From the NCBI GenBank assembly GCA_965205565.1, contig CBDBID010000040.1:111451-175450 (forward strand): DNA of 64,000 bases. The letters run 5' to 3'. Both the position numbers and the translations under genes were made by a program. Within the stretch, counting starts at the first letter, position 1. Every line of letters begins with the position of its first letter. The notes under the pieces were generated by a model. It was not told the DNA's origin, made no database searches, and was given only the letters and a program-made list of their open reading frames with translations. This document shows, one piece after another, positions 4,444 to 50,323 of this stretch. This stretch comes from Acidobacteriota bacterium (GTDB lineage: Bacteria > Acidobacteriota > UBA6911 > RPQK01 > CBDBID01).

Positions 4444-4512
4444 AGGTTGGCCCCGCCCTGCCGGCTCAGCCCAATCCGGCCCCCGAATCCCCGCAAAGGG
4501 GAGGAGAAAGGC

Positions 4513-5079
4513 ATGACCTGGATACGAACCGTTTCCTACGCTCAGGGGGGGGCTCGGCTCAAGAAGGCCATGGATCGGCTACGAGAACTCTACCCTCCAG
4601 AGTACGATCTGCCCGTTCAAGAGGCCGGGCAACGGCAGGAGAGCGTGGTGGCGGTACATAGCTTGATTCCTGATGCTCTCTATCATGCTCTGGCGACTCA
4701 CGGTGTCCTGCTGTCTCCCGAGCTGCCGCTGAGCCGGGCGCAACAGGAGATGATCTCCACGGTGGTCTCGGTTCAGAATCGGTGCTCCTTTTGAATCGAA
4801 TCTCACGCAGAGTTTCTGCGTCAAGTTAGCCTGGACGAACCACTGGTCAAAGCTCTGCAGGAAGATTACCGATCGGCGCCGATTTCCGATCGGGACCGGA
4901 TGATGCTGGATTACGTAGTCCAGCTGACCAAGGATGCCACCCGGATTTCGCGACAGGATCATCACAAATTGGGTCAGGCGGGCTTCGAGGAGCGAGCCAT
5001 CCTGCAGATGACCCTGATTGCCGCTTGGTTCAATTACATCAACCGAGTCGCCGATGCCCTGGGCGTCGGCCGGCCTTAG
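4513..5079 (+). CDS. AhpD/carboxymuconolactone-decarboxylase (CMD) family peroxidase-related protein; candidate selenoprotein with in-frame UGA at 4792-4794
   Basis: GGAGG RBS then ATG at 4513. The reading frame continues unbroken across TGA 4792-4794 to TAG 5077-5079. The motif NRCSF-[TGA]-IESHAEF puts the TGA at the second Cys of the family's CxxC...H redox motif. The C-terminal region ([18 protein letters not shown]) is typical CMD. Confidence 0.6.
4805..4821 (+). promoter_or_regulatory. SECIS-like hairpin (ACGCAGA-GUU-UCUGCGU) starting at the 11th nt after the UGA
   Basis: Perfect 7-bp stem with a 3-nt GUU loop, preceded by a 10-nt spacer after TGA 4792-4794; total 17 nt. Confidence 0.45.
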
Positions 5080-7615: not shown

Positions 7616-9254
7616 CCGACATTCCTCATATCAACTTCGGATGTGAGTTCCTCTGACCTCTACATGATGAATGATCAAAACCTATCAGTCCCCCAACCTT
7701 GAATCAACCGTTCCTTCCCCATCCTTCGGCTGAAAAGGGCCTGTGATCACTGGTTTTCAAGATGCTTTTGGCAAAATCTGATAATCGGAGACACCTCTCC
7801 AGTTGCTCGATCAGAAACACTGAACGCTAAGCTGTACTCCATCTCAATCGGTCAATCCGAGACAATAGCTCGGCCCATATCTCCTGGCTTACCGCGACCT
7901 CCGCCATCTGAAATGTGACGATCCGGCTATGCCAAACTACCTTCGCTCCGATCTTGATCAGCTTAGTCAATAGGCTGCGAAGGGACCAGTGTTTGATGCT
8001 TCTAGGGAGGACCAGCCGCCGCAGGAAATTGCCCAGGTTATAGGCCAAAACGAACAGACCCAACCTCACCTGATTCGGGACAAAGCGCTGGCAGGACAGC
8101 CGTGTCCAGTTCAACGCATACTTGCCTTCCTTGATCCACTGCTCGACGGTGCCACGCCCATTGTAAAAGTGAACCACCCCTGGAGCTTGCGCGCTCATAT
8201 TGGTCACGATGAAACCGACTCTCGGAAAGAGTTCGCCGCGATGCCACTCGACCTTGGCAATCACCCGTCGAGGCCGGTCCCAACTGGCGGCTTGATAGCT
8301 GAAATCGGCAAACCAGACGACGGGTTTTCGGGGTGGACGACCCACTGGCCGGGTCAGCAGGTGTTCAATCTTTTCTTGAAGCACCTGGTTGGCGGGAAGC
8401 CGGATGGCATACAAAAAGCCTTTCTTCTCCAGGTATTGATAAATCTCCGGCTTGGCGAAGGCGGCATCCCCCCGAAAGTATTTGCGGACTTTCTTCTTCT
8501 CGTAGCGAGCCACGATTGGTTCCAGTAGCTCCTTCCAGCGATCCGCGCTGTGAACGTTGCCGGGGCGAAGCAAGGCACCTTCGCAATCTCCGAACTGGTT
8601 AAAACAAAACAGGGGATGGTAGCAGGTGCATCCAAAATGGCCGTTGTAGGCAGAGTCTTCTTGCTCGCCATGGACCGGGCTGGCTGAACTGTCCATATCC
8701 AGAATGATTCGTCGATGAGCGGTCTTCTCCAGTGCTCGTTCCACCCATTGGCCATTGACTTCCGAAAGGGCTTTGAGGTTGTCCTTAACAGACAGCATCT
8801 GGGTCTCAAATCGACCCATTGTGTTGGCACTGGCGGCATTCTTCTTGTCGATCTTCTTTCCAGTGATCCTCCGCATAGTCGGATCCACCGATAAACGATG
8901 ACCATCGTTGACATCTTCATAGCCAGCCAGGCGGCTGTATACTGATTGGCGCAGCAACGACGCGAGGTGGTGCTGGATGTTGCGCCCGGTCCGCGAATCG
9001 TCAAAAACTGAGGGTACACTATCGAATAAAGCCAACGCCTCGTCCAGGTCACGATAGGCGAGAAGTCCGGCATCCGATGTGACCTTTGCCCCATGAAATT
9101 CAAGCCTCAGACTGCCATCAATACCAAGCTTCATACCTTCACCCTTTGGGTTAGCCATTTCTTGCCCTCTTTCATAGATTATATCTGCTGTAATTATAAT
9201 GGGTTAGGGTGATATAGGGAGGCACGATGAGTGTCCCATATGGTGAATGGGGAT
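7616..9254 (-). mobile_element. IS1380-family insertion sequence, copy 1 (intact, ~1.64 kb)
   Basis: Terminal IRs GACATTCCTCATATCA (7616 end) and CCCATATGGTGAATGGGGA (9254 end); near-identical copies at 50945-52403 and a decayed one at 39395-40500. Confidence 0.8.
7827..9158 (-). CDS. IS1380-family DDE transposase (443 aa)
   Basis: Family-typical N-terminus ...KVTSDAGLLAYRDLDEALALFD and length; copy at 51040-52191 is identical apart from a C-terminal deletion and 2 aa substitutions. Confidence 0.8.
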   Translation of the reverse strand: MANPKGEGMKLGIDGSLRLEFHGAKVTSDAGLLAYRDLDEALALFDSVPSVFDDSRTGRNIQHHLASLLRQSVYSRLAGYEDVNDGHRLSVDPTMRRITGKKIDKKNAASANTMGRFETQMLSVKDNLKALSEVNGQWVERALEKTAHRRIILDMDSSASPVHGEQEDSAYNGHFGCTCYHPLFCFNQFGDCEGALLRPGNVHSADRWKELLEPIVARYEKKKVRKYFRGDAAFAKPEIYQYLEKKGFLYAIRLPANQVLQEKIEHLLTRPVGRPPRKPVVWFADFSYQAASWDRPRRVIAKVEWHRGELFPRVGFIVTNMSAQAPGVVHFYNGRGTVEQWIKEGKYALNWTRLSCQRFVPNQVRLGLFVLAYNLGNFLRRLVLPRSIKHWSLRSLLTKLIKIGAKVVWHSRIVTFQMAEVAVSQEIWAELLSRIDRLRWSTA

Positions 9255-10186
9255 TAAATGCAGTGGCTTCCCCCAAAGTTCGGCGGCAGATCCGATTTTA
9301 CAGACTTGATGTTGAGCCGGACGAAACTGGCCATCCACAATCTGTAGATTTCCGAGAGGTTCTCAAGAAGATCGGTCGATTGCAGTTCCGACTCGGGGAG
9401 CGGTATTTGGATCTCAGTGGCGGTCAGATATTGTGCGTCTGGCCAGAGAAAGAGCAATTGAAGTCGAAACCACCACGATTGAGGTTAGGCACCGTCAGGC
9501 AGCAAGATTTACCTCAACTTGAGGACCACGGGAGGATATCTCCTCTTCGATTACAAAGCCAACAGGGCATCGTAGAACAGACGCATGTAGTCTTTTTTGA
9601 CGATGGCATTGTCGGAGTTGAGTTCAACTTTCATGGTCCACGGATTAATAGACTGGGGAGGTACTTATATGTTAGATTTCCTCATGATCTCCCCAAAATA
9701 AACTTCGACATAATTCTGAACTAGGATATCGATAAGAAGCTGGAGCATCTCCAGGATATTCATCTGGTACAATTCCGCTCAAGACGTGGTTATACAGACA
9801 GTGTGAGGCGTGCATCAGAGAGTCTTCCATCTGCTTTGCAGCAGATGGAAGATGCCGTGAGTCCTCCTGTAATAGACATTATTATGAGAAACGAACTCCG
9901 ATCCCGCAAGAGTTTAGGGAAGGCAGTCCTCGATTGGGTACGAGAGATAGCGGGAACTCCTAGCTCTCTTGAGGAGCTCGATGTTTTCAAGGTTAAAGGG
10001 ACCGATGATAGGACTGGAAGGGTTGAAAACTTTGATTTCTTAAGTGATCGATTTGTGGCTACGAAAACTGTCCATCTACAACTCGACACCCATAGAGGAA
10101 TAAAATCTGGTGAGATGTACGATGCCATCAGTGAATCTCACGCAGAGTTGAAAGATTCTCTAAATCAAGCGGCCAGTTTGTCATGA
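9255..10186 (+). pseudogene. AT-rich gene remnant: N-terminally truncated by the IS1380 insertion and carrying an internal TAG (9722-9724)
   Basis: A single frame is open from the IS end to 10186 except for one amber codon; ~45-50% GC against ~60% background; no recognisable domain. Confidence 0.4.
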
Positions 10187-10281
10187 GCACTATAATATCC
10201 TTATACCAGCGTCACTTTATGGTCGTAGACCTAATTGGATCAATGCTCTTGGCGGTGCTGATTTGGGTGGAACACAGATAC

Positions 10282-11734
10282 CTAGCAGTCCGTGGTGGAA
10301 GTACGTTTTCTGAGCTCAGGTGGTACCCACCGGTGGAAGCAGCGAAGGGGTCGCTGAGGTGGGTTTTTCGGGCCAAGCAGCCGGAATCAGTCCGAACAGG
10401 CCCTTAAGACGCTTGAACAGCGACAAAATCAGTAGCATTAGGGCGCAAATCCGCCCCTGCAGACCCCGCGGCGTTCCCACACCCAGGCTCTGACGCATCA
10501 GCATCCCCAGATTGAAGGCGCTCACCTGGATCAGCAGTCGCTTCAACACATTCTCATGTCCCCGTACATGCAGCCGTCTCATCCCTCCGCTCCCGTACAG
10601 ATGCGCACAGGGTCGCTCCAGCTGCTCTCCTCGTTGCTGCAGCAGCCGCTGCCCTCGCTCTCCCCGGATGCGCCGCCGATTCGCATACACCGCTTCCTGC
10701 CCCTGCCGGTCTCCTCGCCAGCGTCGCTTCCCTCGCCTCGGTTCGCTCACATAGCTGCGCAGTCCCACCGCATCCAGGTCCACCATCCGCTGCGTGCTGT
10801 GATACCCCTTGTCGGCCACCACCTCTTCGATGCCTCGTCCCTCCGGCAGCGCTTGTTCCACCTTCTCGACCGCTTCCGTCAGGGTCTTCACCATGGTCTG
10901 CGTGTCCCCTTGATCGGCTCCCTGTACCGTCACCGAGACAATCGCTCCGGTCTCCAGATCCACTGCATGCTCCGCCTTGTGCGCCAGGTGCGTCCGCCCG
11001 TCCTTCATTCTGGTAATCCGCGCATCCGCATCATGCGGGTGCTTCCAAACCCGGTTCGATCCTTTGCCCGTGCGCTTGCGGTCCAGTTTGGCCAGATCTT
11101 CCCGTCGCGGCGTCTCAATCCCGGAGGCTTTCGCCAGCTCCATCAAAAACTCTTCATACCCCTGCTCGCTGTCCCGGCGCACGATGCTGCGCAGCGCTGC
11201 ATTCGCTTCCAGCGTAGTGGCATCGATGCCGATCGTCTTGCCCCGCAGCAGGCCGCTCGCCCCGATCCGCTTCAGTACCCAGTCAAAGACTGCTTCGTGG
11301 GTAGCCACATCGATCAGTCGCCGGGTTCGGGAGATCGTGGAGTGATCAGACGGCGACTCGCTCAGTTTCAATCCCAGAAACTCTCGCAGTGCCAGAGAAT
11401 CAGCTGCTCTCCAGGCTATTCCTCGTTCCGATCCGATCCCTTCGAAATACCCCACCAGCAGCAGCCGAAAGTACACTCCCGGAGCCAGGCTCGGTCGCCC
11501 CATCTTGTCTGCATAGAACTTCGCACACAGTCCCTCCACGAAGTCGTCAAAACCGTGTTCGTTGAAAAGGCCATTCAGTCTTTCGTAGAAGGGATGGCCG
11601 GCGGTGCGGGGCAGCTCACTGGTGGCGACCCACAGGTCTTCTTGCTGTCGACGTTTCTTTTTCCCCATTGCCATGGGGTCAGTCTAGTGTCGCTGTGTGA
11701 CCCCTTATCCTCGACTTTCACCACGGGCTGCTAG
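10282..11734 (-). mobile_element. IS5/IS1182-family insertion sequence, copy A (1453 bp)
   Basis: Imperfect 20-bp IRs CTAGCAGTCCGTGGTGGAAG / CTTTCACCACGGGCTGCTAG; second copy at 41235-42686 with >99% identity. Confidence 0.8.
10316..11674 (-). CDS. IS5/IS1182-family transposase (452 aa, DUF772 N-terminal domain + DDE)
   Basis: FYADKMGRPSLAPGVYFRLLLVGYFEGIGSERGIAWRAADSL is the InsH-N/DUF772 signature; ADKGYHS DDE region. Confidence 0.8.
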   Translation of the reverse strand: MAMGKKKRRQQEDLWVATSELPRTAGHPFYERLNGLFNEHGFDDFVEGLCAKFYADKMGRPSLAPGVYFRLLLVGYFEGIGSERGIAWRAADSLALREFLGLKLSESPSDHSTISRTRRLIDVATHEAVFDWVLKRIGASGLLRGKTIGIDATTLEANAALRSIVRRDSEQGYEEFLMELAKASGIETPRREDLAKLDRKRTGKGSNRVWKHPHDADARITRMKDGRTHLAHKAEHAVDLETGAIVSVTVQGADQGDTQTMVKTLTEAVEKVEQALPEGRGIEEVVADKGYHSTQRMVDLDAVGLRSYVSEPRRGKRRWRGDRQGQEAVYANRRRIRGERGQRLLQQRGEQLERPCAHLYGSGGMRRLHVRGHENVLKRLLIQVSAFNLGMLMRQSLGVGTPRGLQGRICALMLLILSLFKRLKGLFGLIPAAWPEKPTSATPSLLPPVGTT

Positions 11735-11853
11735 GACTCATACCCCTCGTTACATCCTTCTCTGATAATCACCAGACTCTCTATGGCACTCTGGCTTCTG
11801 TATGTGGGTCTCTTCTGGGCTTTGTTATCACTTCTGTATCGATAATATTTTCG

Positions 11854-12114
11854 TTGTCTCCTCGGAAATCTTTTCGGATGCTCACTGATTCAGGCCATCA
11901 TCAAACCCTTTTTGCCGTCTACTTTAACTCGGTCTTCTTCCTGGCTTTTGCCACGGTCTGGGCACTGGTGGGGGTTCTTTTTGACACTAGACTTTCACCA
12001 TCTCCGTGGATTACATGCATGATGTTGGGGTTGACTGTGGTAGTGGTATTTCGAATATACCGCTGTATCTGGATCCTTAAGCAGATGGTAGGTATCACAC
12101 TACGATCCTATTAG
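11854..12114 (+). CDS. hypothetical small membrane protein (86 aa, 2 TM)
   Basis: AT-rich ORF lying exactly between the IS1182 end and the IS1595 transposase stop; may be spurious. Confidence 0.2.
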   Translation: MSPRKSFRMLTDSGHHQTLFAVYFNSVFFLAFATVWALVGVLFDTRLSPSPWITCMMLGLTVVVVFRIYRCIWILKQMVGITLRSY

Positions 12115-13062
12115 TCACATACTCCCCACTAAATCCTTATACCGCAAACGTTTCCCGTCCATGCCCTTCGCTACTGAGGCCATCTGGTCAATGGTATCCA
12201 AGGATCGGATGTTGTGCCGACCGGAGAACTCATTGACATACCGCTGCAGGTGCTTCTCGCTCATGCGGTGGTAGGTTCCGTAGTAGCCACGCTTCAGGAG
12301 CGCCCAGAAGCTCTCAATCCCGTTGGTGTGGGCCTGTCCCTTGACAAATTCACGGACGCTGTGACGGACGGAACTATGCTCGAAATCCAGCCAGAGCCGA
12401 TTGTAACCGCTGTGATCGTCCGTGTAGACCGTTGATCCTGGCTTGACTCGCTCCTGGATAAATCCTTCTAGTTCTTCCTGGGTGGTTCCCTGGATGACTG
12501 TGGCACTGACACGGTTGGTTTCACGATCCTTGACGCCAGCGACCGGAATCTTGCCCACGCCCCCACGACCAGCGTGAAGCCTCTTGCTAGGATGCTTGTT
12601 CTTCTCCTTGCCGCCGATGTACGTTTCGTCCACTTCGACCGGGCCGGAAAGGATCTTGTCGCCAAAGTCGAACCCTTCCCGTATGCGCTGCATCATGTGC
12701 CAGGCTGATTTCTGAGTGATGCCGAGTTCCCGGTGGACCTTCATGCTGGAGATGCCTTTGAGGTTGGTGGTCGCCATGTAAAGGACTATGGCCCAGTCCC
12801 GAATGCGGATGTTGCTGGAATGCATGGCCGTACCCTTGCGGACGCTGAAGTACTTCCGGCAATCCTTGCAGCGGTAGGGCATGGTTTTGTGATTGACTCG
12901 TGAGTACCTTTTGGACTCGCAATCAGGGCAGTGGATTCCGTTAGGCCATCTCTGCTCCTCAAACCACTTCTCAGCGGCTTCATCGGTTGGGAAAATGTCG
13001 AATAACTCTGTGATCGTCAGCCCTTTGCGGTCGGACCTTACGGGTGCTTTTGCCTTCTTCAT
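12115..13062 (-). CDS. IS1595-family (ISXO2-like) transposase
   Basis: N-terminal zinc ribbon CPDCES...CKDCRKYFS plus DDE region VEVDETYIGGKEKNKH; Met start at 13062 (MKKAKAP...), 316 aa. Confidence 0.75.
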   Translation of the reverse strand: MKKAKAPVRSDRKGLTITELFDIFPTDEAAEKWFEEQRWPNGIHCPDCESKRYSRVNHKTMPYRCKDCRKYFSVRKGTAMHSSNIRIRDWAIVLYMATTNLKGISSMKVHRELGITQKSAWHMMQRIREGFDFGDKILSGPVEVDETYIGGKEKNKHPSKRLHAGRGGVGKIPVAGVKDRETNRVSATVIQGTTQEELEGFIQERVKPGSTVYTDDHSGYNRLWLDFEHSSVRHSVREFVKGQAHTNGIESFWALLKRGYYGTYHRMSEKHLQRYVNEFSGRHNIRSLDTIDQMASVAKGMDGKRLRYKDLVGSM

Positions 13063-13250
13063 GGAAACTATAGTACCATGATAGTCTGACAGTTTTGGAA
13101 ACTTAGGTATATAATTCCCATTCTTTTTGTCATCGCATCTCCAGGCACTTCGCCAGGCCATGGACCCCTGGGTCAAACATGCCCGAACCCGGGAAGAAAG
13201 GACCGCCGAACTACAGAGACATTTGACGGTACTGCCCAAGGGTTCGGTGA

Positions 13251-14928: not shown

Positions 14929-15333
14929 ATGGCAACCATACGTGTGATGGAAGAGAGGGAGGCCGAGGGGCGGGTTCGGGAGATCTTCGAAGAGATCAAG
15001 AAAACCAAAGAGATTGATTTAGTGCCAGCCATCTGGCGGGCGCTGGCGAATCATCCCGGCCATCTGGAAGTGACCTGGAAGAAACTGAAGGGAATCATGC
15101 ACGAGTCCAGTCGACTGGACCTGAAGACCAAGGAGATGCTGGCCCTGGCGGTATCCATTACCAACGGTTGCACCTACTGAATCCATTCCCATACAGTCGC
15201 CGTGAAGCGGCTTGGATTGGATAATAAAGGGTTGGGCGAGCTGATCGCGGTGATCGACCTATTTAATGGTTTGAACCGAGTGGCCGATGGCTACCAGCTG
15301 GAGCCGGACGTGGTACCTGCTCTGGAAGATTGA
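14929..15333 (+). CDS. AhpD/CMD-family protein, paralogue 2; candidate selenoprotein with in-frame UGA at 15178-15180
   Basis: Frame continuous across the TGA to the TGA at 15331-15333; motif ITNGCTY-[TGA]-IHSH parallels NRCSF-[TGA]-IESH of the 4513 gene; C-terminus LGELIAVIDLFNGLNRVADGY is CMD-like. Confidence 0.5.
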
Positions 15334-23941: not shown

Positions 23942-24814
23942 ATGAACAAGCTCCCGGCAAAGAGGCGGGCCAAGATCATTCGGTTGCTGGTCGAGGGTGC
24001 TTCGCTCCGCTCTATAAGCCGGATCGAGGATGTCTCAATCAACACCGTCTCCAAGCTGTTGGTCGATGCGGGTGAGGCGTGCGTGAACTTCCACAACAAC
24101 CATGTGCAGGGCGTGAAGGCCAAGCGCATCCAAGTAGACGAGATTTGGCAGTTCTGCTACGCGAAGGAGAAGAACGTGGATAAGGCCAAGGCCGCGCCGG
24201 AGGGATCGGGCGACACATGGACCTGGACAGCGATTGACGCCGATTCCAAGCTGATCGTTTCATGGTTGCTGGGAGAGCGCGACAGCCGCTCCGCCTATCA
24301 CTTCATTGCGGACCTGGCCGAGCGGCTCACCGATCGCGTGCAACTCACCTCAGACGGCCTCGGCCTCTACAGGTGGGCCGTGGAGTGGGTGTTCGGATCG
24401 GACGTCGACTACGCCCAGCTGGTGAAGATTTTCGGTGCGCCCGTCGAGGGAGAGAAACGCTACAGCCCCGCCACCTGCAAGGGCACCAAGCGATCCGCCG
24501 TGATGGGCAACCCCCACCCCGACCACGTCTCCACTTCCTATGTCGAGCGGCACAATCTGACCATGCGGATGTCGATGCGCCGGTTCACACGCCTGACAAA
24601 TGCGTTTTCTAAGAAACTGCGGAACCATGCTCTCGCGCTCGCGCTATACTTCGTCTACTACAATTTCTGCCGGATTCACAAGACGCTTCGCATGACACCG
24701 GCTATGGCCGCTGGCCTCACGACCCAACTGCACGATGCAGAATGGATCGTTGGATTGGTAGACGCACGAGCACCTAAGCCAGCGAAGCCCGGACCGAAGG
24801 GGCCTAGAAAATAA
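23942..24814 (+). CDS. IS1-family (single-ORF type) transposase
   Basis: N-terminal HTH (RRAKIIRLLVEGASLRSISRIEDVSINTVSKLL), DDE region DEIWQFC...WTWTAIDADSKLIVSW, C-terminal YNFCRIHKTLRMTPAMAAGL typical of IS1 InsB. Confidence 0.6.
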   Translation: MNKLPAKRRAKIIRLLVEGASLRSISRIEDVSINTVSKLLVDAGEACVNFHNNHVQGVKAKRIQVDEIWQFCYAKEKNVDKAKAAPEGSGDTWTWTAIDADSKLIVSWLLGERDSRSAYHFIADLAERLTDRVQLTSDGLGLYRWAVEWVFGSDVDYAQLVKIFGAPVEGEKRYSPATCKGTKRSAVMGNPHPDHVSTSYVERHNLTMRMSMRRFTRLTNAFSKKLRNHALALALYFVYYNFCRIHKTLRMTPAMAAGLTTQLHDAEWIVGLVDARAPKPAKPGPKGPRK

Positions 24815-25451: not shown

Positions 25452-26885
25452 ATGGCCCCTGTGGCGAACCCCACCCAGGCGTTACGCTCTCTCCCCTCCG
25501 TAGACGAGGTCCTGCGGCGCAGTGCCGTCAAGAAACTGCTGCAATCCCACGCCCGAGATCTGGTGGTTCGCATCGTCCAGGAGCGCCTGGAAGAGCTGCG
25601 CACGCTGGTTTTGAGCCAGCATCTGGACGAGGCCGCGCTGGAGTCGCGTCTGGCGAATCTGGACGGGTGCATCAGTGCTTGCTTGAGAAAATATCTTATC
25701 CCGTCGTTGCACAAGGTGGTCAATGCCACAGGTGTGATCGTTCATACCAACTTGGGCCGGGCCCCCATGGCGGCTCCCGCGGCGGCCAGGTTGGAGGAGA
25801 TCGCCAGATCCTACTCGACGCTGGAGTACGATCTGGAGAAGGGTGATCGAGGGCATCGGGACCGTTATTTCGAGCAGCGAATGATGCAAGTTCTGGGATG
25901 TGAGGCCGCCACCGTCTGCAACAACAATGCCGCCGCGGTTTTCCTGCTCGTCAACACCCTGGCCGCCGGCAAAAAGGTGCTGGTGAGTCGAGGTGAGCTG
26001 ATCGAAATCGGAGGGTCTTTCCGCATTCCCGACATCCTTCGAAGTAGTGGTGCTGTCCTGAAAGAAGTGGGGACCACCAACAAGACCAGGACCTCGGATT
26101 ACCGGAACGCCATCGACGAGGACACGGCTCTCATCTTACGGGTTCATCCGAGCAATTACCGAGTCGTAGGATTTACGGCGAGGCCCCGTTTGAAGGAATT
26201 GAGCGAGCTGGCGCGGGAACGGAACCTGTATCTCATCAAGGATGCGGGAAGTGGTTACCTTTTCCCGATTTCCCACTCAGTCTTGGGTCGCGAACCAACC
26301 ATCCAGTCGGTCCTGCAAACGGGGGTTGATGCCGTGTGTTTCAGCGGCGACAAATTACTGGGGGGGCCACAGTCCGGCGTGGTGGTAGGAAAAAGGGATT
26401 TGATTGATCGCCTCCGCGACAACCCTCTGATGAGAGTTTTCCGTGTGGACAAGATGACTTACGCTGCGCTGGACTCGACGCTGCTGGAATATCTCAAGGG
26501 AACGGCGGCGCAAACAATCCCCGTCCTGCGCATGCTATCGCTTTCGGTCGAAGAGCTGGAGCATCGAGCCAGGGGGATACAAGAACAGCTCGATTCGCGC
26601 GTTTTTGAAACTTGTCTGCGAGCGGGGGCCTCGGTAGTGGGCGGTGGAGCCGCCCCGGAAGAATCGATCGACACCAGGCTACTGGCTATCCGCTGGCCAG
26701 CCCATTCAGCCCACGACTTGGAGCAAGCGCTGCGCCACCAGGATCCTCCGATCCTGGCACGTATCGGAAAAGATCAATTGCTGCTGGACTTGCGAACCGT
26801 CTTGCCGGAAGAAGACCCAATCGTGGTAAAGGCCTTCTCGAGACTGGCCAATAGGCGTGAGGATCCCGTTCACACAAGCGGTTGA
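25452..26885 (+). CDS. selA: L-seryl-tRNA(Sec) selenium transferase (selenocysteine synthase) SelA
   Basis: LPSVDEVL N-terminus, VVNATGVIVHTNLGRA, CNNNAAAVFL...SRGELIEIGGSFRIP, PLP-lysine region FSGDKLLGGPQSG; 477 aa. Confidence 0.85.
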   Translation: MAPVANPTQALRSLPSVDEVLRRSAVKKLLQSHARDLVVRIVQERLEELRTLVLSQHLDEAALESRLANLDGCISACLRKYLIPSLHKVVNATGVIVHTNLGRAPMAAPAAARLEEIARSYSTLEYDLEKGDRGHRDRYFEQRMMQVLGCEAATVCNNNAAAVFLLVNTLAAGKKVLVSRGELIEIGGSFRIPDILRSSGAVLKEVGTTNKTRTSDYRNAIDEDTALILRVHPSNYRVVGFTARPRLKELSELARERNLYLIKDAGSGYLFPISHSVLGREPTIQSVLQTGVDAVCFSGDKLLGGPQSGVVVGKRDLIDRLRDNPLMRVFRVDKMTYAALDSTLLEYLKGTAAQTIPVLRMLSLSVEELEHRARGIQEQLDSRVFETCLRAGASVVGGGAAPEESIDTRLLAIRWPAHSAHDLEQALRHQDPPILARIGKDQLLLDLRTVLPEEDPIVVKAFSRLANRREDPVHTSG

Positions 26886-26944
26886 GATTTTTGCCGTGTC
26901 GGGCTATTGCCGCTGTGGGGGTGATCCGCTCATGAATGAGTTTT

Positions 26945-28298
26945 TCAGAGTTGGCGAAGGGCCAGGTTGGCGGCGATCTGCAGGGGATCCCACAGTGTGC
27001 CGTAGGGTGGTGCGTAGGCAAGGTCCAGCTGAGAAAGCTCCCAAACCGTCATTCTGGCCGTCAGGGCGGCAACCAGGGTGTCGATCCGCTTGGCTACGGA
27101 ATCGTTTCCGGCGATCTGACCGCCCAGAATACGCCCGTCTCCTCGATCGAAGATCAATTTGACGTGCATGGGACCGGCGTCCGGATAATAGCGGGCCCGG
27201 TTGCGATCGGTCACGTAAACAGAGCTGGCTGCGAAACCGGCTTTGTAGGCCTGACGCAGGGTCAGACCGGTGCGGGCGACAGCGAGTTGGAAAACCTTTT
27301 CCAAGGAGGTCTCCAGGCTCCCCGCGAAAGATGCTGGTTTGACCGGCCAGATTTTCCCCCACGACGCGCCCCTGCTTGGCGGCTGTGGTACCCAGAGATG
27401 AGAAGATCGGCTGTCCGGACACCTGGGAGACGGTCTGTGCGCAATTGCCGGCCGCATACACACCTCCGGTTCGAGTTTGCCCGCGTTCGTCAACCCAGAT
27501 AGCTCCGCTCATCCCGCAAGGGATTCCAGACCGCTCCGCCAGTGCGGTGTTGGGATCTATCCCGACGTCGATCACCGCGAGGCCCACGGGGCGGACTTCG
27601 GGGCCCACCTCTACAGCCTGGACCGCTCCGTTCAGACCAGCCAGTTTCCTGACTCGTGTTTCCAGGACTAGGTCGATCTGGTTTCGTCTCAGCTCCTCCT
27701 GGATAAGCTCGGCGATCTCCTCGTCCACCTGGTTAAAGACGTGCGGATTGCGCTCGACCAGGAGCACCTCCAAGCCCAGAGTGCGCAGGGCGTGGGCCAT
27801 CATGAGGCCAATGTAGCCCCCACCCACGATCACCGCGCGACGCAGCTTGTTTCGCTTGATGGCATTCCGGATGCGGATACCGTCTTCCAAACGGCTGACG
27901 GTAAACACGTTCTGCAAGCGGAGACCGTCGATGTCGGGTACTCTGGGGACGTAACCGGTGGCGATGACGATTTTCCGGTAAGGGATCTCGAATGACTTTT
28001 CCGAGCGCAGGTCGGTGCAGGCAACCAGGCTGCGGCCCGTGTAAATCTCATCCACGCGGACGTTGGTGCGGGATAGGATGCCGCGCTCGGTCCGGAGACG
28101 CTCCGGTGAAAAGGAGATGAGTCGTTCGTGTTCCCCGACCATCCCGGAAACGTAGTAGGGCAGACCACAGATGCTGTAGGAGATAAAGGGGCTGGCTTCC
28201 AGGAGGGTTATCTCCAGATTGGGATCAAGGCGCTTGGCACGGCTGGCCGCGGTCATCCCGGCTGCATTTCCGCCGATCACCACGATACTTTCGCCCAT
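26945..28298 (-). CDS. FAD-dependent pyridine nucleotide-disulfide oxidoreductase (NADH oxidase / CoA-disulfide reductase family) with an apparent 1-nt frameshift near 27342
   Basis: N-terminus MGESIVVIGGNAAGMTAA...SICGLPYY (redox Cys); the C-terminal dimerisation domain (YYPDAGPMHVKL...GRILGGQIAG) is in the +1 frame (ORF 26945-27493); the switch lies between ENLAG and KPASFAGSL. Confidence 0.6.
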
Positions 28299-41059: not shown

Positions 41060-41234
41060 TGATATATCGCCGCATTTATAAGCCTAACCATTTCTTGATT
41101 GCCATATCTTCCAGAAAGTTGCTCGCCTTCATCGATAAGAAAAGTCGGATGGCTTTGTTCATTGAGCCTAAATAAGACAGCAGTTGTAATTCCTGCGCTC
41201 ATCTATTCAAATCAGGTCTTGTACAAACTAGCTC

Positions 41235-42686
41235 TAGCAGTCCGTGGTGGAAGTACGTTTTCTGAGCTCAGGTGGTACCCACCGGTGGAAGCAGCGAAGG
41301 GGTCGCTGAGGTGGGTTTTTCGGGCCAAGCAGCCGGAATCAGTCCGAACAGGACCTTAAGACGCTTGAACAGCGACAAAATCAGTAGCATTAGGGCGCAA
41401 ATCCGCCCCTGCAGACCCCGCGGCGTTCCCACACCCAGGCTCTGACGCATCAGCATCCCCAGATTGAAGGCGCTCACCTGGATCAGCAGTCGCTTCAACA
41501 CATTCTCATGTCCCCGTACATGCAGCCGTCTCATCCCTCCGCTCCCGTACAGATGCGCACAGGGTCGCTCCAGCTGCTCTCCTCGTTGCTGCAGCAGCCG
41601 CTGCCCTCGCTCTCCCCGGATGCGCCGCCGATTCGCATACACCGCTTCCTGCCCCTGCCGGTCTCCTCGCCAGCGTCGCTTCCCTCGCCTCGGTTCGCTC
41701 ACATAGCTGCGCAGTCCCACCGCATCCAGGTCCACCATCCGCTGCGTGCTGTGATACCCCTTGTCGGCCACCACCTCTTCGATGCCTCGTCCCTCCGGCA
41801 GCGCTTGTTCCACCTTCTCGACCGCTTCCGTCAGGGTCTTCACCATGGTCTGCGTGTCCCCTTGATCGGCTCCCTGTACCGTCACCGAGACAATCGCTCC
41901 GGTCTCCAGATCCACTGCATGCTCCGCCTTGTGCGCCAGGTGCGTCCGCCCGTCCTTCATTCTGGTAATCCGCGCATCCGCATCATGCGGGTGCTTCCAA
42001 ACCCGGTTCGATCCTTTGCCCGTGCGCTTGCGGTCCAGTTTGGCCAGATCTTCCCGTCGCGGCGTCTCAATCCCGGAGGCTTTCGCCAGCTCCATCAAAA
42101 ACTCTTCATACCCCTGCTCGCTGTCCCCGCGCACGATGCTGCGCAGCGCTGCATTCGCTTCCAGCGTAGTGGCATCGATGCCGATCGTCTTGCCCCGCAG
42201 CAGGCCGCTCGCCCCGATCCGCTTCAGTACCCAGTCAAAGACTGCTTCGTGGGTAGCCACATCGATCAGTCGTCGGGTTCGGGAGATCGTGGAGTGATCA
42301 GACGGCGACTCGCTCACTTTCAATCCCAGAAACTCTCGCAGTCCCAGAGAATCAGCTGCTCTCCAGGCAATTCCTCGTTCCGATCCGATCCCTTCGAAAT
42401 ACCCCACCAGCAGCAGCCGAAAGTACACTCCCGGAGCCAGGCTCGGTCGCCCCATCTTGTCTGCATAGAACTTCGCACACAGTCCCTCCACGAAGTCGTC
42501 AAAGCCGTGTTCGTTGAAAAGGCCATTCAGTCTTTCGTAGAAGGGATGGCCGGCGGTGTGGGGCAGCTCACTGGTGGCGACCCACAGGTCTTCTTGCTGT
42601 CGACGTTTCTTTTTCCCCATTGCCATGGGGTCAGTCTAGTGTCGCTGTGTGACCCCTTATCCTCGACTTTCACCACGGGCTGCTAG
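41235..42686 (-). mobile_element. IS5/IS1182-family insertion sequence, copy B (1452 bp)
   Basis: Same IRs as copy A; 4 aa differences in the transposase; same orientation as copy A (direct repeats ~29.5 kb apart). Confidence 0.8.
41268..42626 (-). CDS. IS5/IS1182-family transposase (452 aa)
   Basis: Near-identical to 10316-11674. Confidence 0.8.
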   Translation of the reverse strand: MAMGKKKRRQQEDLWVATSELPHTAGHPFYERLNGLFNEHGFDDFVEGLCAKFYADKMGRPSLAPGVYFRLLLVGYFEGIGSERGIAWRAADSLGLREFLGLKVSESPSDHSTISRTRRLIDVATHEAVFDWVLKRIGASGLLRGKTIGIDATTLEANAALRSIVRGDSEQGYEEFLMELAKASGIETPRREDLAKLDRKRTGKGSNRVWKHPHDADARITRMKDGRTHLAHKAEHAVDLETGAIVSVTVQGADQGDTQTMVKTLTEAVEKVEQALPEGRGIEEVVADKGYHSTQRMVDLDAVGLRSYVSEPRRGKRRWRGDRQGQEAVYANRRRIRGERGQRLLQQRGEQLERPCAHLYGSGGMRRLHVRGHENVLKRLLIQVSAFNLGMLMRQSLGVGTPRGLQGRICALMLLILSLFKRLKVLFGLIPAAWPEKPTSATPSLLPPVGTT

Positions 42687-43073
42687 GAGAGTAAGAAGGT
42701 TTGACTTTCCACACCCCGAGGTAGGACTAATAACGGTATCTCTGTCGTCGTCAGCCTTCTTGATTGGGGACAAATCTATCAATTTCTTCCCGGAACCAAG
42801 TAACCACTACCCAAAGAGCCACCAGTGTCGAGCCGGTAACTGTTCCATATACATATACGAGCCAAACCATTCACTGATGTTCTTTCAAAACGAGAGGAGC
42901 CTTCGACAGGATTCGGATAGGGGGTAACAGGGGGGACTGCGTCATCGTGCTTAAGGGCTTTGCGCTTCAGGCATGCTTAATAGCTGGCGTCCACCAGTCG
43001 AGCAGGCGCATCCACGCCACCCTCTTTTAGAGCGTCTATTGCTCCGAGAACGCAGTATCTCGCGACCTAAATT

Positions 43074-43099
43074 GGGTAACTACTTACTTGACATACCAA
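43074..43099. repeat. left terminal inverted repeat of the IS1595-family unit
   Basis: GGGTAACTACTTACTTGACATACCAA; reverse complement present at 46829-46854. Confidence 0.7.
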
Positions 43100-43125
43100 A
43101 ATAACCCTGCTATTATTGTCTCATC

Positions 43126-44079
43126 ATGAGGTATCCAAAGTCATTAGTTGAGGCTGTCCGGTTCTTTTCAGACTTTGAGCGTTGCCGCCAATACATGGTG
43201 AAACTTCGCTGGCCCGACGGCAAGGTGACTTGCCCACGGTGCGGCGGGGATCGAGTCAAGTGGCTGGCAAAGGCTCGGGTATGGAAGTGCTACGCAAAGC
43301 ACAAGCAGCCCACCTTCACGCTCAAGACGGGAACGATCTTCGAGGAATCTCCTATCGGTCTGGACAAGTGGACTACGGCAATCTGGCTGGTCGCAAATTG
43401 CAAAAACGGGATTTCTTCTCTTGAGATGGCCCGCCATCTGGGAGTGACCCAGAAGACGGCATGGTTCATGAATCACCGCATCCGCAAGGCCATGCAGGAC
43501 GGGTCGTTCGTCAAGCTGGGCGGAGAGATCGAAGTCGATGAGACATTCATCGGTGGAAAGGCTCGCAATATGCACGTCTCCGCAAGGAAGCGCCGGATCA
43601 CTGGCACTGGCGGGAAGGACAAAACCGCCGTGCTGGGAATGCTGGAACGAAACGGAAGGGTCCGAACTTCCGTGATAGAGGATCGTAAGAGGCGGACCAT
43701 CCATCCCCAGGTCCGTGACCAGGTGGAGGCCGGTTCCGCACTCTATTCCGATGAGTTACTTTCATACGAAGGGCTGGCATCCGATTACGCCCACCAGGTC
43801 ATCAATCACGCAGTCGAATACGTCAGGGGTGAGGTTCATACCAATGGCATGGAGAACTACTGGTCGCTGCTCAAGCGCGGCCTCAATGGAACCTATGTCT
43901 CGGTCGAGCCGTTTCACCTGTTCCGTTACCTAGCAGAGCAAGCCTTCCGGTTCAACAACCGCGAGGCTGAGGGTGGAGACTTCGAGCGTTTCTCGATTGC
44001 GATGGCACAGGCAGTTGGTCGCAGGCTTACTTATGACGAACTGTCGGGGAGGGCACCTAGTCAAGCGACGGTTAACTAA
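43126..44079 (+). CDS. IS1595-family transposase (317 aa)
   Basis: Zinc ribbon CPRCGGDRVKWLAKARVWKC and DDE region EVDETFIGGKARNMH; diverged from the 12115-13062 copy. Confidence 0.75.
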   Translation: MRYPKSLVEAVRFFSDFERCRQYMVKLRWPDGKVTCPRCGGDRVKWLAKARVWKCYAKHKQPTFTLKTGTIFEESPIGLDKWTTAIWLVANCKNGISSLEMARHLGVTQKTAWFMNHRIRKAMQDGSFVKLGGEIEVDETFIGGKARNMHVSARKRRITGTGGKDKTAVLGMLERNGRVRTSVIEDRKRRTIHPQVRDQVEAGSALYSDELLSYEGLASDYAHQVINHAVEYVRGEVHTNGMENYWSLLKRGLNGTYVSVEPFHLFRYLAEQAFRFNNREAEGGDFERFSIAMAQAVGRRLTYDELSGRAPSQATVN

Positions 44080-44338
44080 GAAGGAGTCCGAGAGGCAGGG
44101 TCGCGGGAAGCGCCGCGACCGCTAAAGATTGATTTCATCACTGTTTGGAATCTTCTGAACGCCTCCGGCCCTTCGATCATGTTCAGCTCACTTGCCGATT
44201 TCTTGGCCTTCTGCTGAGAAGATGAGCGACTGGTACTCGCCTTAGCTTCTCTTTGCCGTGGTGGTCTTCCCAAGCGATCCTCCTCTCGAAGCAACTTTCC
44301 CCAAGAAAAGTGCATCTTACACTTTTTCAGGGAGGTTT

Positions 44339-45154
44339 TCAATCATGGGTACCGCTTTCGCAACCAAAGACCTTGGAATCAAACTCGCCAATGATCTCGG
44401 AGACACGTGTCCAGGTTTTCCAGAGAAGTTGTACAAGGTTCCATCTAACCCCGGAGACAAGGTGGAACTTCTCAAACCCTACCGAGAAGCAAGGATATGC
44501 CTTTATCTCCTCGTCCGCTCGGCCAACGGGGAACGTTCCAAAAATCACCTCATCTTCTTTCAGCAACGCGTTCCCGTCCACGTGGAACAGCGGTGTGCTC
44601 TTGTTCCCTGTGTGTGCGGCCAATGTGCCGAACACAATAAGCGTTGTGGGGATGATTCTATGCTTGTCGGTGTTGTGGAGTTCTCTGAGAACCCAGAGCA
44701 TATCATCGTGCGGGGCACGGGGGATTCGTTCGTAAGGCTGTTCCCTCTCTATGAGAGATGCTTGGAGCGGGGATACACCTTCTATCATTCCGCCCGATCT
44801 GGATCTATACCCGCTCCTGGTTTTGAAGATGGGAAACTGGAGTCTTCCCTCTTTCTGGAGATCAAGACTGGGTTCGTTCAAAAGCACGATCTGATGAACG
44901 AGATGGTCAAGACTAGATCGCAAGTGGTACAGGGCCTCCCCGGCCAACAAGACGATATTGATATCGAGCTTGAAGCTGGGGTTTCTGACTGCGGTAAGCG
45001 TTACGGCGGGACTCCCTTTCTCCGATTTTTCATCGACTCGGATGGTGTATGGTTCACGCTTTGTAAGCTGGTCAAGGTGCCCATTCAGGTCGTTGATTAT
45101 GGTTTTGGCCCGTTCAATTTTGAGGCGGATTCCTTCTAGCGGATCAATCATCAC
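44339..45154 (-). CDS. hypothetical passenger protein (271 aa), co-operonic with the methyltransferase-HNH gene
   Basis: Its start overlaps the MTase stop (ATGA, 45151-45154); contains RELHNTDKHR (possible HEPN-like Rx4-6H); is fully overlapped by an antisense 293-aa ORF. Confidence 0.4.
   Translation of the reverse strand: MMIDPLEGIRLKIERAKTIINDLNGHLDQLTKREPYTIRVDEKSEKGSPAVTLTAVRNPSFKLDINIVLLAGEALYHLRSSLDHLVHQIVLLNEPSLDLQKEGRLQFPIFKTRSGYRSRSGGMIEGVSPLQASLIEREQPYERIPRAPHDDMLWVLRELHNTDKHRIIPTTLIVFGTLAAHTGNKSTPLFHVDGNALLKEDEVIFGTFPVGRADEEIKAYPCFSVGFEKFHLVSGVRWNLVQLLWKTWTRVSEIIGEFDSKVFGCESGTHD
44345..45139 (+). CDS. alternative antisense ORF (264 aa from the ATG at 44345) overlapping the 271-aa gene
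   Basis: GGGAGG RBS 8 nt upstream of the ATG; a stop-free stretch of ~290 codons in ~50% GC DNA is unexpected by chance. Confidence 0.25.
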   Translation: MGTAFATKDLGIKLANDLGDTCPGFPEKLYKVPSNPGDKVELLKPYREARICLYLLVRSANGERSKNHLIFFQQRVPVHVEQRCALVPCVCGQCAEHNKRCGDDSMLVGVVEFSENPEHIIVRGTGDSFVRLFPLYERCLERGYTFYHSARSGSIPAPGFEDGKLESSLFLEIKTGFVQKHDLMNEMVKTRSQVVQGLPGQQDDIDIELEAGVSDCGKRYGGTPFLRFFIDSDGVWFTLCKLVKVPIQVVDYGFGPFNFEADSF

Positions 45155-46801
45155 TCAAAAAGGCTCGGATTCATCTCGTGTTCCCGCCGGATCTTCCGCA
45201 TGATCGGGTTCTCTCTTTCTGAATCCGCCATGTAGCCCAGCTTCTTGTTCTGCCTTCTCAGTCCGATCAGCGTTAGCGTGTTGCTCTTGAGCCGGTTGCA
45301 CGGGCTGCAGAGCAGAATCCGGTTTGACAGTTCGTTCGAGCCGCCGTCCGAGCGCGGCTGCCGGTGGTCCAGTTCCAGGTAACGGGGATCGTCAAACTTC
45401 CGGTCGCACCCCTGGCACTTGGGGCCGTGCTCGATGATGAGCTGGTGAAACATCGCCGTCCGGCTGAGGGTGGATTCTCTCGGCTCGTGCTTGGAGTATT
45501 TCACCTTGAGGAATGGGGCCGCAATCTGTCCGTCATCGGTGCGCTTTGGGGTCCGCTTACGATAGTAAATCTTATCGAACGCAAGCTTGTCCCTAGCGTG
45601 TCCCTTCACCTCAAAATACTCTTCCCTGAATCTGTCCAGAACTACCTCATGCGCCCTGTCCCAAATGTCAATGCCTACCCATTGGCGATCAGCCAACTCA
45701 GCCGCAACGCAGGTAGTCGCACAGCCACAGAAGGGGTCAAGCACCATGCTTCCCTTCTTGGAGCTGGCTTGGTTGATTCGGTTGTAAAGGGTTAGTGGCT
45801 TCTGTGTTGCGTAGCCGGTGCTTTCATCTTTCCCGGCAGGTGCAATGTCGGTCCACAGATTGGGAACGGCTTGTTGCGGAATGCCTTGCAAATAGCGTTT
45901 GAGTCTCGGCTTTCCGTTGCGTGTCCAGTGTATTAACCCTACCTTGTCTAGTGCGTGGCACTTGCCGAGTTGGTCAAGTTTGCTGTAGCCGCTTCCCAAC
46001 AAGTCTTTTTCCCAATCTGGCAGTTTCGATATTTGCGGTGGCGCCCATGCTCTCCCGGCTGGCGGCGGCATGTCATTGAACGCCCTATAAGCCTCTTCGC
46101 TGCCCGCCTTGCCGCCGCTTAAATCAGTTGTTGTAAATCGTCCGCGCTCATCTTTTTGGGTGTAAAGAGCATCAATCTGATCTTCTGTCATGGGCGTATA
46201 GTCTCCCCTGAAAACGAACTTGCCGCTTTTCGGGTAGAACAGGATGCAATCCGTGATCGCTTCGTACTTGCGAATGGACAGCGGGTGTGCGTTGGTGCGT
46301 CTCCAAACAATCTCATTCTTGAAGCTCTTCCACCCGAATATCGCATCCATAGATCGCCTTGAGGTAGTGGCTGGCCGTGGGGTCGCAGTGGAGGTACAGC
46401 GAACCGGTAGGCTTTAACACGCGGTGCATTTCCAAGAGCCGCACGGCCATGAAACACAGAAAGGCTCCCATGTCTGACCCAACTTCCTCCCTGGACCGTT
46501 TCAGGTTCTTCTTGGTCTGTCTCATGTAGATCGCGTTAGCCGCGTCAATCACTTCCCAGACAGGAGGGAAATCGTCTTTGATCTTGTCCACCCAGTCTTG
46601 ATGCACGTCCCGATCCCAGGACCAGCGGTCCTGAAATCGTGCACCCTGTGCTAGGCTGTCGGGCGTGGCGTGAAAGTCTCGACCCTTGTTGAACGGTGGA
46701 TCGGTGGCGATGAGGTCCACGGTCCCGCTGTTCATGGCACGAAGGAACAACAGGTTATCGCCGTGGAATAGAGTGCGGTTTTTCCAGTTGGCTGTAGGCA
46801 T
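45151..46801 (-). CDS. N4/N6 DNA methyltransferase (PF01555 type) fused to a C-terminal HNH endonuclease domain; frameshift in the 46313-46350 overlap
   Basis: N-terminal part (46313-46801): DLIATDPPFN (motif IV). C-terminal part (45151-46350): DPFCGCATT (motif I) then ELDHRQPRSDGGSNELSNRILLCSPCNRLKS (HNH). The two ORFs overlap by 38 nt in different frames. Confidence 0.6.
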
Positions 46802-46828
46802 CCCAGAAGGGATGCTAGACTAGGTATG

Positions 46829-46854
46829 TTGGTATGTCAAGTAAGTAGTTACCC
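46829..46854. repeat. right terminal inverted repeat of the IS1595-family unit
   Basis: TTGGTATGTCAAGTAAGTAGTTACCC is the reverse complement of 43074-43099. Confidence 0.7.
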
Positions 46855-46930
46855 TAAATTGTCTAGACTTTCTGCTTCCTTTTTCACATCAAGCAAATAG
46901 GCTTCTACTTTATCGATGTCCAAGGTTTTC

Positions 46931-47764
46931 TTATCCAAAGTGGTGTTTCTTCTTCTCGTTAAGGAAAGCACCAATTTCCCCAGGTTGGTAAGGGACAACA
47001 GCGCCTATTGTCCCGGGGGCGTAACGAGAAAGACTGGCAGAGATTGTTTCGATTTCATGATCTTGAATTGGCGGATCAACATGGTATTTCTTGATTATGA
47101 GAAGACATTCGAAGATTGCCTCTCGACACAGACCTACCCTTCGAAGCGTTCCTCCGATACTAGTAAGTGTTGCGTTTCTCTTGCCCTTGGAGATCATCCC
47201 TTTCTCTCCGCTTATTACTTGTCTAGCGGGTGCTTCCAACAAAAGCGGGAGCAGGAAACCACGCAGAGGAGCTAATCGGACTTTATTAGCCCATTGATAT
47301 TTATTTCCATTAACATGAACTGAAGGCGGAACCACGACGTAGCCACCCTCACCACGGACGTCTATCCGCTCTCGGAATCCTGTCTTGTTGCGGATCAATT
47401 GGCCTTCGGGATACTCGAAAAACAGCTGTGATCCTCTTCCAGTTTTCTGTTCCAGGGTTTCGGGAAACCTACCCAGCTCGTTTTGTAATTCGTAGAAAGC
47501 TTCTTGTCGATCAATATCTAGAACCACTAAACCTGAAGCCTCTCCTGTAGGCATTCCGATGTTCGCTTTAGGCCATTGCTCCAACCAATCTTTTATGACT
47601 GATGCGTCACAAGTGGCGTCTTTTAACCCTCGGCTTGTCAGCGGGTGCTTTCCTGGACTTGAGCACTTCGCCTTTCCACAGGAACAGGCTCTGTCCTCAG
47701 GCCAGTAGAGAGGAAGAATTAGCTTTCCCTTCTTGGCGTATTTAAGTGCTTCCTTGAATGTCAT
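46931..47764 (-). CDS. bifunctional DNA primase/polymerase (Prim-Pol) N-terminal domain protein
   Basis: LPLYWPEDRACSCGKAKCSSPGKHPL...ANIGMPTGEASGLVVLDIDR matches the PF09250 pattern; typical of plasmids, phages and integrative elements. Confidence 0.55.
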   Translation of the reverse strand: MTFKEALKYAKKGKLILPLYWPEDRACSCGKAKCSSPGKHPLTSRGLKDATCDASVIKDWLEQWPKANIGMPTGEASGLVVLDIDRQEAFYELQNELGRFPETLEQKTGRGSQLFFEYPEGQLIRNKTGFRERIDVRGEGGYVVVPPSVHVNGNKYQWANKVRLAPLRGFLLPLLLEAPARQVISGEKGMISKGKRNATLTSIGGTLRRVGLCREAIFECLLIIKKYHVDPPIQDHEIETISASLSRYAPGTIGAVVPYQPGEIGAFLNEKKKHHFG

Positions 47765-48108
47765 TTCTTCGCTAGAGGCTTTAATAGAGATCCTGGGTTG
47801 AGCGACTTTAGCTTTGCTGGTGTTGTTTCCAGCGCTGTAGAGAACTTCTCTATTTCTTTGTTTTCGGCTTTGATATGTCCGTTTTCAATCAATGAATTTT
47901 TTAAGAGGGGATGCCAGTCTTTTCAGCCAAGTCCCACTGCGTCAGGCCAGCCCAGTGTCGAGCGACTTTTAATGATTTCATGCCTCCCATTACATCCAAT
48001 ATAGGGGTTAACAGCAAACTAATTTGTTAGTAATTATAAGAAAATAACGGATATCCGGAACTATCCGGCCCTAAGTCCGGCCCTGCTGGTTAAAATCGAT
48101 GGGAAGGG

Positions 48109-48609: not shown

Positions 48610-48861
48610 AAGTAATGGGGAATCCAGGGGGTCTATTATCTGCTTTTATACTGAACCCATACACCACCGCCACTCTCGTGATATTACGCACTAACCAATG
48701 AAAATCTGGCTTGTTAGGACGATCATCTACCATTTGCTATCCCCTGCCGCACAAGGGTTAGCCCCACAGCCAGTGCAGCGATCTAACCGGAGAGGATAGA
48801 TCTGACTATGGGGCCTTCAGAACACCTAATTAGACTGCCTGTTACTTAAATTCTATCGCTT

Positions 48862-49542: not shown

Positions 49543-49679
49543 AGGATTTCTCCGTTTGAGTAATGAGTAAATACTCGGCGGCCAACTCCGCAATGTGAAA
49601 TGAGAGACCAGAGGAGAAAGCAAGACACAATTCGGAAAAGACAAAGTTGAGGGCTAGTAGAGGAAGCAATTTATCCCCG

Positions 49680-50168: not shown

Positions 50169-50323
50169 GAGCTAACCTCAAGCACACATTGGGTATTTAC
50201 AGTTGAAAATAATCCTAGCAGCCAGCAGTGTGAAGGTCAAACCGGGCTAAAGAAGGCTAACCAAAGGGCATTTAGCAAGCGGGACAAATTTGGGAAAGGA
50301 AAAGTTGAAGAAGGATAAATATA

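Follow-up and report, generated by a model that had tools for sequence, protein, structure and literature searches.

Gene organization

The DNA analyzed here is a stretch of 64,000 nt, hereafter termed the window, from an Acidobacteriota bacterium (GenBank assembly GCA_965205565.1, contig CBDBID010000040.1, positions 111,451 to 175,450), and the subject of this report is an open reading frame (ORF) at positions 4513-5079, related to the AhpD-like peroxidase-related proteins, that has exactly one in-frame TGA between its ATG and TAG codons when translated. An initial annotation, made from the nucleotide sequence alone, had identified this ORF as a candidate selenoprotein gene in which the TGA replaces the second Cys of a CxxC...H redox motif, is read as selenocysteine (Sec) and is followed by a hairpin with the appearance of a bacterial Sec insertion sequence (SECIS). 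The positions it gave for the start codon, the TGA and the stop codon are verified on the sequence (Table 1), and the residues encoded around the TGA, NRCSF-U-IESHAEF, do place the UGA at the second Cys of this motif. The public gene calls, for the same sequence and for two near-identical assemblies, divide the gene into products of 93 and 58 amino acids. The fragments called correspond to positions 4513-4794 and about 4903-5079 (2001-2282 and 2391-2567 in loci L168 and L169), residues 95-130 are covered by neither and the split is an incorrect annotation.

Table 1. Positions in the window of the ORF with an in-frame TGA, its predicted functional elements, selA and a second ORF of the same superfamily
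Feature	Position	Strand	Basis or comment
Shine-Dalgarno-like sequence, GGAGGAG	4500-4506	+	6 nt 5′ of start codon; read from sequence
Coding sequence of predicted 188-residue AhpD-like selenoprotein (TIGR01926 / COG2128), UGA read through	4513-5079	+	Translation, profile scores, homologues
ATG start codon	4513-4515	+	Homologues likewise start MTWI(K/R)T
Glu79 codon, predicted proton-relay glutamate	4747-4749	+	Invariant in alignment of relatives; 12 residues before first Cys
Cys91 codon, TGC, first residue of CxxU	4783-4785	+	Cys in 119/120 homologues
Phe93 codon, TTT, one residue before Sec	4789-4791	+	Translation
Predicted Sec codon, UGA, Sec94, at second Cys of CxxC	4792-4794	+	TGA in 160/160 loci; Cys in 47/120 homologues
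Spacer, 10 nt, UGA to hairpin	4795-4804	+	Synonymous sites free to vary among relatives
His98 codon, four residues after Sec/Cys	4804-4806	+	His in 119/120 homologues; equivalent of M. tuberculosis AhpD His137
Predicted SECIS hairpin, inside codons His98-Arg103	4805-4821	+	Fold and codon conservation
Hairpin stem, 7 bp, and apical loop, GUU	4805-4811 paired with 4815-4821; loop 4812-4814	+	
TAG stop codon	5077-5079	+	Read from sequence
selA, L-seryl-tRNA(Sec) selenium transferase	25452-26885	+	Pfam SelA 458.6 bits and Se-cys_synth_N
Second CMD/AhpD-superfamily ORF, in-frame TGA at 15178-15180	14929-15333	+	Motif NGCTY-U-IHSH, TGA at second Cys of CxxC

Relationship to AhpD-like proteins

With Cys put in for the stop, the 188-residue protein scores 111.3 bits with the NCBIfam profile TIGR01926, 'peroxidase-related enzyme', for which the curated cut-off is 81.8, and 31.9 bits with Pfam CMD (cut-off 23). 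With TIGR00777 the score is only 21 bits where the cut-off is 192, and the sequence relationship to AhpD itself from Mycobacterium tuberculosis is distant. The best sequence matches in the PDB are 2pfx (E = 1e-20) and 3c1l (E = 3e-19), and the motif of these proteins, N-x-C-x-Y-C-x-x-H, aligns with NRCSF-U-IESH. TIGR01926 above its cut-off, the match to Pfam CMD and the existence of full-length homologues all support the earlier claim that the protein is AhpD/CMD-like on both sides of the TGA. The active-site pattern Glu...(12)...Cys-x-x-Cys/Sec-x-x-x-His is present as Glu79, Cys91, Sec94 and His98. Proton relays have been described that consist of Glu118, Cys130, His132, Cys133 and His137 in AhpD from Mycobacterium tuberculosis, and of Glu36, Cys48, Tyr50, Cys51 and His55 in PA0269 (PMC3141380), and the site occupied by Phe93 corresponds to the His/Tyr residue of these relays.

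That AhpD-like proteins are an established family of bacterial selenoproteins, as also stated in the initial annotation, is well documented. The Sargasso Sea study of 2005 introduced them as a new selenoprotein family (COG2128, CxxU), presenting 27 sequences together with a figure of the SECIS (Zhang, Fomenko and Gladyshev; PMC1088965). In the Global Ocean Sampling (GOS) data, 'AhpD-like 1' ranks fourth in abundance among prokaryotic selenoprotein families, 299 of its members having Sec and 902 having Cys (Zhang and Gladyshev 2008; PMC2398784), and a 2026 review has an entry for 'AhpD-like protein', with TIGR01926 and CxxU, as a selenoprotein family (PMC13188914).

Conservation of the TGA codon

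Residues at the Sec position were counted in the 120 best database protein homologues, which are ~188 amino acids in length with 57-67% identity and 99% query coverage, and codons were read from the DNA of 160 loci, half of them the best 80 in species-representative genomes, a set that does not include the window's own genome, and half the best 80 in metagenomes. All 160 of these closest loci, with 61-67% protein identity, have TGA at the Sec codon in a frame that is otherwise open and conserved. The species-representative genomes are mostly from Acidobacteriota (Pyrinomonadaceae, Blastocatellia, Terriglobia, Vicinamibacterales and Thermoanaerobaculia), with six of the 80 labeled Gemmatimonadota and one each Planctomycetales, Verrucomicrobiia and Cytophagia. 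The initial annotation had left it to be seen if homologues carry Cys or Sec at this position or end there with no similarity beyond. Cys is present in 47 of the 120 proteins, as it is at the aligned second Cys of 2pfx and 3c1l, all the loci have TGA and similarity runs on to the C-terminus. The Cys-bearing homologues are more distant than those with TGA, consistent with a classic Sec/Cys pair.

A further 70 of the 120 homologues have 'W' in the UGA column. These entries all share the same downstream peptide type and nearly all are on contigs of ~1 kb. As TGA is present in each of the 160 fetched loci with this peptide type, these 70 entries, whose own DNA is not among the fetched loci, are most likely the result of TGA being translated by a gene caller under a non-standard (TGA = Trp) code. 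Spurious Trp residues at the Sec position of database entries could mislead inference of active sites from alignments. In one homologue, P0057 (L170, positions 1281-1283), TTA (Leu) replaces the TGA and the downstream 17-nt SECIS is intact, the codons that follow being ATC GAA TCT CAC GCA GAG TTT CTG CGT. This TTA could be a sequencing error or the outcome of a recent, inactivating change of G to T.

The hairpin downstream of the UGA

The sequence ACGCAGA-GUU-UCUGCGU, located just downstream of the UGA, folds into a stem of 7 bp without mismatches and a loop of 3 nt, has a predicted energy of -8.2 kcal/mol when folded alone and appears in the minimum free energy (MFE) fold of the surrounding region. 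The published bacterial SECIS (bSECIS) model has a loop of 3-9 nt, a stem of 4-16 bp, 16-37 nt from the UGA to the loop, an MFE of -7.5 kcal/mol or lower and a G in the first two loop positions, usually then followed by G or U (PMC13188914). With a GUU loop, 7 bp, a UGA spacing of 17 nt and the energy given above, the window hairpin conforms to this model in full. In the minimal SECIS of Escherichia coli fdhF (Liu et al. 1998), a 17-nt upper stem-loop is positioned 11 nt from the UGA and has a bulged U17 and loop residues G23 and U24 (PMC8659212). The initial annotation described a 10-nt spacer followed by a perfect 17-nt stem-loop with G/U in the loop, which is correct, and held that this exactly matches the placement, 11 nt downstream of the UGA, required for bacterial SECIS function. 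The match to the fdhF element is not exact, the spacer being 10 nt and the stem without a bulge. A search of the entire window with Rfam at gathering thresholds, and of positions 4700-4900 at E values up to 10, returned no SECIS family, only a tRNA-Ala and three spurious miRNA/snoRNA matches (E > 2), a result that is uninformative rather than negative with regard to a SECIS.

The pattern of codon use in relatives is much more informative. In a set of 156 unique sequences from relatives, the third-codon positions within the hairpin (+14, +17, +20, +23, +26 and +29, counted from the T of TGA) are nearly fixed; all four bases are used at the third positions that flank it (+8, +11, +32, +35, +38 and +41). 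In a whole-gene codon alignment of 161 sequences with 113 conserved codons, synonymous entropy is lowest at the six codons 98-103 (His CAC, Ala GCA, Glu GAG, Phe TTT, Leu CTG and Arg CGT), at 0.00-0.23 bit, with the next lowest at 0.45 and a median of 1.53 for the others. GCA, GAG, TTT, CTG and CGT are fixed in 155-161 of the 161 sequences, yet outside the hairpin the family uses GCA least often of all Ala codons and makes only minor use of TTT and CGT. At Glu100, the fixed G in the third position supplies the first base of the apical loop, the guanosine required by the bSECIS model. The same 17-mer, ACGCAGAGUUUCUGCGU, is present in 143 of the 156 unique relatives and all variants retain at least 6 bp, the only changes in the stem being A-U to G-U, C-G to U-G and two of A-U to A·C at the closing and terminal pairs. 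Conservation of both the hairpin and the TGA in relatives, the absence of which the initial annotation would have taken as evidence against a selenoprotein, is therefore well established by the invariant TGA, the shared 17-mer and the suppression of synonymous sites.

Five unique sequences were available as Cys-type DNA controls (L161, L162, L163, L165 and L166). They encode the same HAEFLR peptide (HVEFLR in L163) by using GCC/GCG/GTC, TTC/TTT, CTC/CTG and CGC/CGG/CGT/AGG, and none of the five forms the 7-bp hairpin. Judged by its codons, the hairpin evidently experiences RNA-level selection in the Sec-type relatives, unlike in the Cys-type homologues, and this codon contrast provides a clean, textbook case of SECIS selection within a coding sequence.

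Stop codon usage and selA

TGA is the commonest ordinary stop codon in the window. As it terminates 14 of the 28 Pfam-supported genes, the standard code is used and UGA has not been reassigned. The window also contains a selA gene (Table 1), located 20.7 kb downstream of the UGA and so consistent with the distance of 20 kb noted in the initial annotation. selA is a marker for the Sec-decoding trait in this organism, and the named relatives of the window SelA, with 52-57% identity, are from Acidobacteriota metagenome-assembled genomes, which points tentatively to a deep lineage within this phylum.

Immediately 5′ of selA there is an insertion sequence (IS) IS1-like ORF (23942-24814) and directly 3′, transcribed convergently, a Pyr_redox_2 gene encoding a pyridine-nucleotide-disulfide oxidoreductase (26904-28298, - strand; 192 bits). 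A selAB operon is a common arrangement; here selA is present without an adjoining selB.

Proposed Sec insertion and the alternatives

Based on these comparisons, which bear out the initial annotation, it is very probable that positions 4513-5079 constitute one gene, encoding an AhpD-like peroxidase-related thiol/selenol oxidoreductase, with the UGA decoded as Sec. The steps that we infer are that a SelB-GTP-Sec-tRNA(Sec) complex would bind the 17-nt hairpin, in which the loop G-U starts 17 nt after the UGA, and that binding while the ribosome is positioned at the UGA would result in Sec insertion rather than termination by release factor 2 (RF2). SelA, encoded in the same window, would make the Sec-tRNA(Sec). 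The active site, Glu79...Cys91-Ser-Phe-Sec94...His98, would then have the AhpD proton-relay arrangement with Sec for the second Cys, and the product would presumably alternate between selenenylsulfide and selenol/thiol forms, thereby reducing a peroxiredoxin partner or peroxides.

Several observations weigh against this interpretation. Relative to dinucleotide shuffles, the fold energy of the 61-nt region is unremarkable (z = +0.47), and when all 84 sites in the window at which an in-frame TGA connects ORF halves that each have 40 codons or more were scanned, loose bSECIS criteria were passed at 26 of these arbitrary junctions. Conformity to the model, although complete for this hairpin, is thus too permissive a test to serve as sole evidence. 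By itself the hairpin is within the range of chance, and the case therefore rests on the comparison with relatives and not on fold energy. There is also no compensatory base-pair change among the 156 relatives, in which the stem is near-invariant, and as the stem hardly varies, the RNA structure is deduced from the suppression of synonymous sites and not from covariation. The Cys-type DNA control is small, with only the five unique sequences listed above. In addition to the shorter spacer (10 rather than 11 nt) and the lack of a bulged U, the hairpin differs from that of fdhF in having the loop G 2 nt nearer to the UGA. The residue that precedes Sec is Tyr in 160 of 161 Sec-type sequences and is Phe93 in the window protein. 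Within the 64-kb window, a tRNA-Sec was not found by ARAGORN or Rfam, nor were selB and selD by Pfam scans of the 40 ORFs of at least 200 amino acids.

Among the alternatives, the least improbable, although it too is very improbable, is that the hairpin is a mere by-product of the conserved HAEFLR peptide, with any read-through of the UGA resulting from near-cognate suppression or from Cys insertion. HAEFLRR is indeed conserved also in Cys-type homologues, and the lack of compensatory changes, the unexceptional fold energy and the 26 of 84 arbitrary TGAs that pass the loose model all count in its favor. In Cys-type homologues, and at other sites in this gene, the same amino acids are, however, encoded by varied codons, and so amino acid conservation fails to explain the codon fixation. 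Furthermore, the third-position G that is invariant in Glu100 is the loop G that bSECIS requires, and the homologue with TTA in place of TGA (L170) has retained the hairpin and looks like a recent loss.

Still less probable is that the TGA is a true stop codon, in either a pseudogene or the first of two small genes, that generates a 93-residue product and is followed by an independent downstream ORF. The public gene calls interpret the locus in this way, and TGA is a normal stop codon for genes in the window, but the TGA has been kept in 160 of 160 loci, the frame and residues are conserved to the C-terminus, including residues 95-130 that neither call covers, and full-length Cys homologues and solved structures extend across the site. 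A nonsense mutation would also not be expected to persist across phyla together with a selected hairpin, and the comparative data effectively refute a pseudogene or split gene. Reassignment of UGA to a sense codon (Trp or Gly, as in code 4 or 25) might be suggested by the 70 database homologues with 'W' but is barely credible, as these entries would fit a metagenome gene caller that used a TGA = Trp model on ~1-kb contigs, the codon in the 160 fetched loci of the same peptide type is TGA and not TGG, the 14 window genes that end with TGA are among 28 Pfam-supported genes in which no in-frame TGA was seen, and Trp at a catalytic Cys site would be chemically senseless when Cys homologues exist.

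With Sec at the UGA as the preferred reading, the main value of these results is the correct annotation of a mis-split gene. The gene would also mark this uncultured lineage as a user of Sec and add to its inventory of redox-defence functions. The family, which is one of the most abundant among bacterial selenoproteins, has been on record together with its CxxU motif and SECIS since 2005, and the window gene adds a member and opens no new question.

A second candidate and the genomic surroundings

The second ORF with an in-frame TGA listed in Table 1 has a Pfam CMD match of 55.7 bits that extends across the TGA and scores 47.7 bits with TIGR00778 (cut-off 27.8). A stem-loop of ~40 nt begins directly after the UGA, and its apical loop, ~20 nt downstream, contains G-U. 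Of its 120 best homologues, 82 have Cys at the TGA column and the other 38 are calls of 82-83 amino acids that end exactly there. On this sequence evidence, it is probably a second selenoprotein gene and it resembles the group designated 'CMD-like / AhpD-like 2', to which it may belong. An additional candidate with an in-frame TGA (63135-63854, - strand) was rejected, as it lacks any match in Pfam.

Two regions of the window, 7827-13239 and 41234-52191, are rich in IS elements. Direct copies of a DUF772/DDE transposase element, 100% identical, begin at 10282 and 41234, and 100% identical inverted copies of a DDE_Tnp_1_4 element are located at 8042-9261 and 50937-52156. IS1595-type transposases are encoded at 12115-13239 (- strand) and 43126-44079 (+ strand). 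Between the IS copies, an ORF for a DNA methylase-HNH fusion (45151-46350) adjoins a Prim-Pol ORF (46931-47764, - strand), which suggests that 45151-47764 (- strand) is an integrated mobile or phage-like element.

At two of the Cys-type loci (L163, 1713-2567, and P0056), the next gene downstream encodes a protein with EF-hand and T4_deiodinase/AhpC-TSA/Redoxin domains. Another of the known selenoprotein families in bacteria is that of the deiodinase-like proteins, and a redox partnership between the Cys-type AhpD-like protein and the downstream deiodinase-like protein is therefore possible.

In the E. coli element most positions of the stem can vary, and the 17-mer is thus conserved more tightly than generic recognition by SelB would seem to require. 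Its conservation in at least four phyla, at ~60-67% protein identity, might reflect repeated horizontal transfer of the gene with its SECIS, or a second, family-specific constraint on the hairpin, and the IS-rich setting, selA and the second candidate CMD-family Sec gene might hint at a mobile 'selenium island'; we regard this as speculative and rather unlikely.

Comparison with known systems

With the AhpD-like selenoprotein family, the window gene shares a profile score above cut-off, a CxxU motif with Sec for the second Cys, widespread Cys homologues and a small SECIS hairpin, with a G in the apical loop, just 3′ of the UGA. There is no categorical difference from this family, although no sequence found is more than 67% identical to the window copy, which comes from an uncultured, soil-type lineage and has Phe rather than Tyr before Sec and Gln rather than Arg at residue 104. 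The proteins of known structure, 2pfx and 3c1l ('uncharacterized peroxidase-related protein', Mlr4105), have Cys where the window protein would have Sec.

Common to the window protein and to M. tuberculosis AhpD and PA0269 are a Glu 12 residues before the first Cys, the first Cys itself, an aromatic residue or His two residues after it, the second Cys or Sec and a His four residues further on. M. tuberculosis AhpD is, however, distant in sequence and has Cys where Sec is predicted here. The Phe at position 93 is unable to donate a proton as the His and Tyr do in AhpD and PA0269, and by comparison with these two systems no ahpC adjoins the window gene.

As in E. coli fdhF, there is a 17-nt stem-loop within the coding sequence soon after the UGA, with a loop that starts G-U. 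Apart from the differences in spacing and bulge noted above, the window stem is a perfect 7 bp closed by a triloop, and RNAalifold predicts no conserved lower stem. By analogy, although not of the exact fdhF type, the window hairpin presumably works as the fdhF element does and, presumably, also in a SelB-dependent manner.

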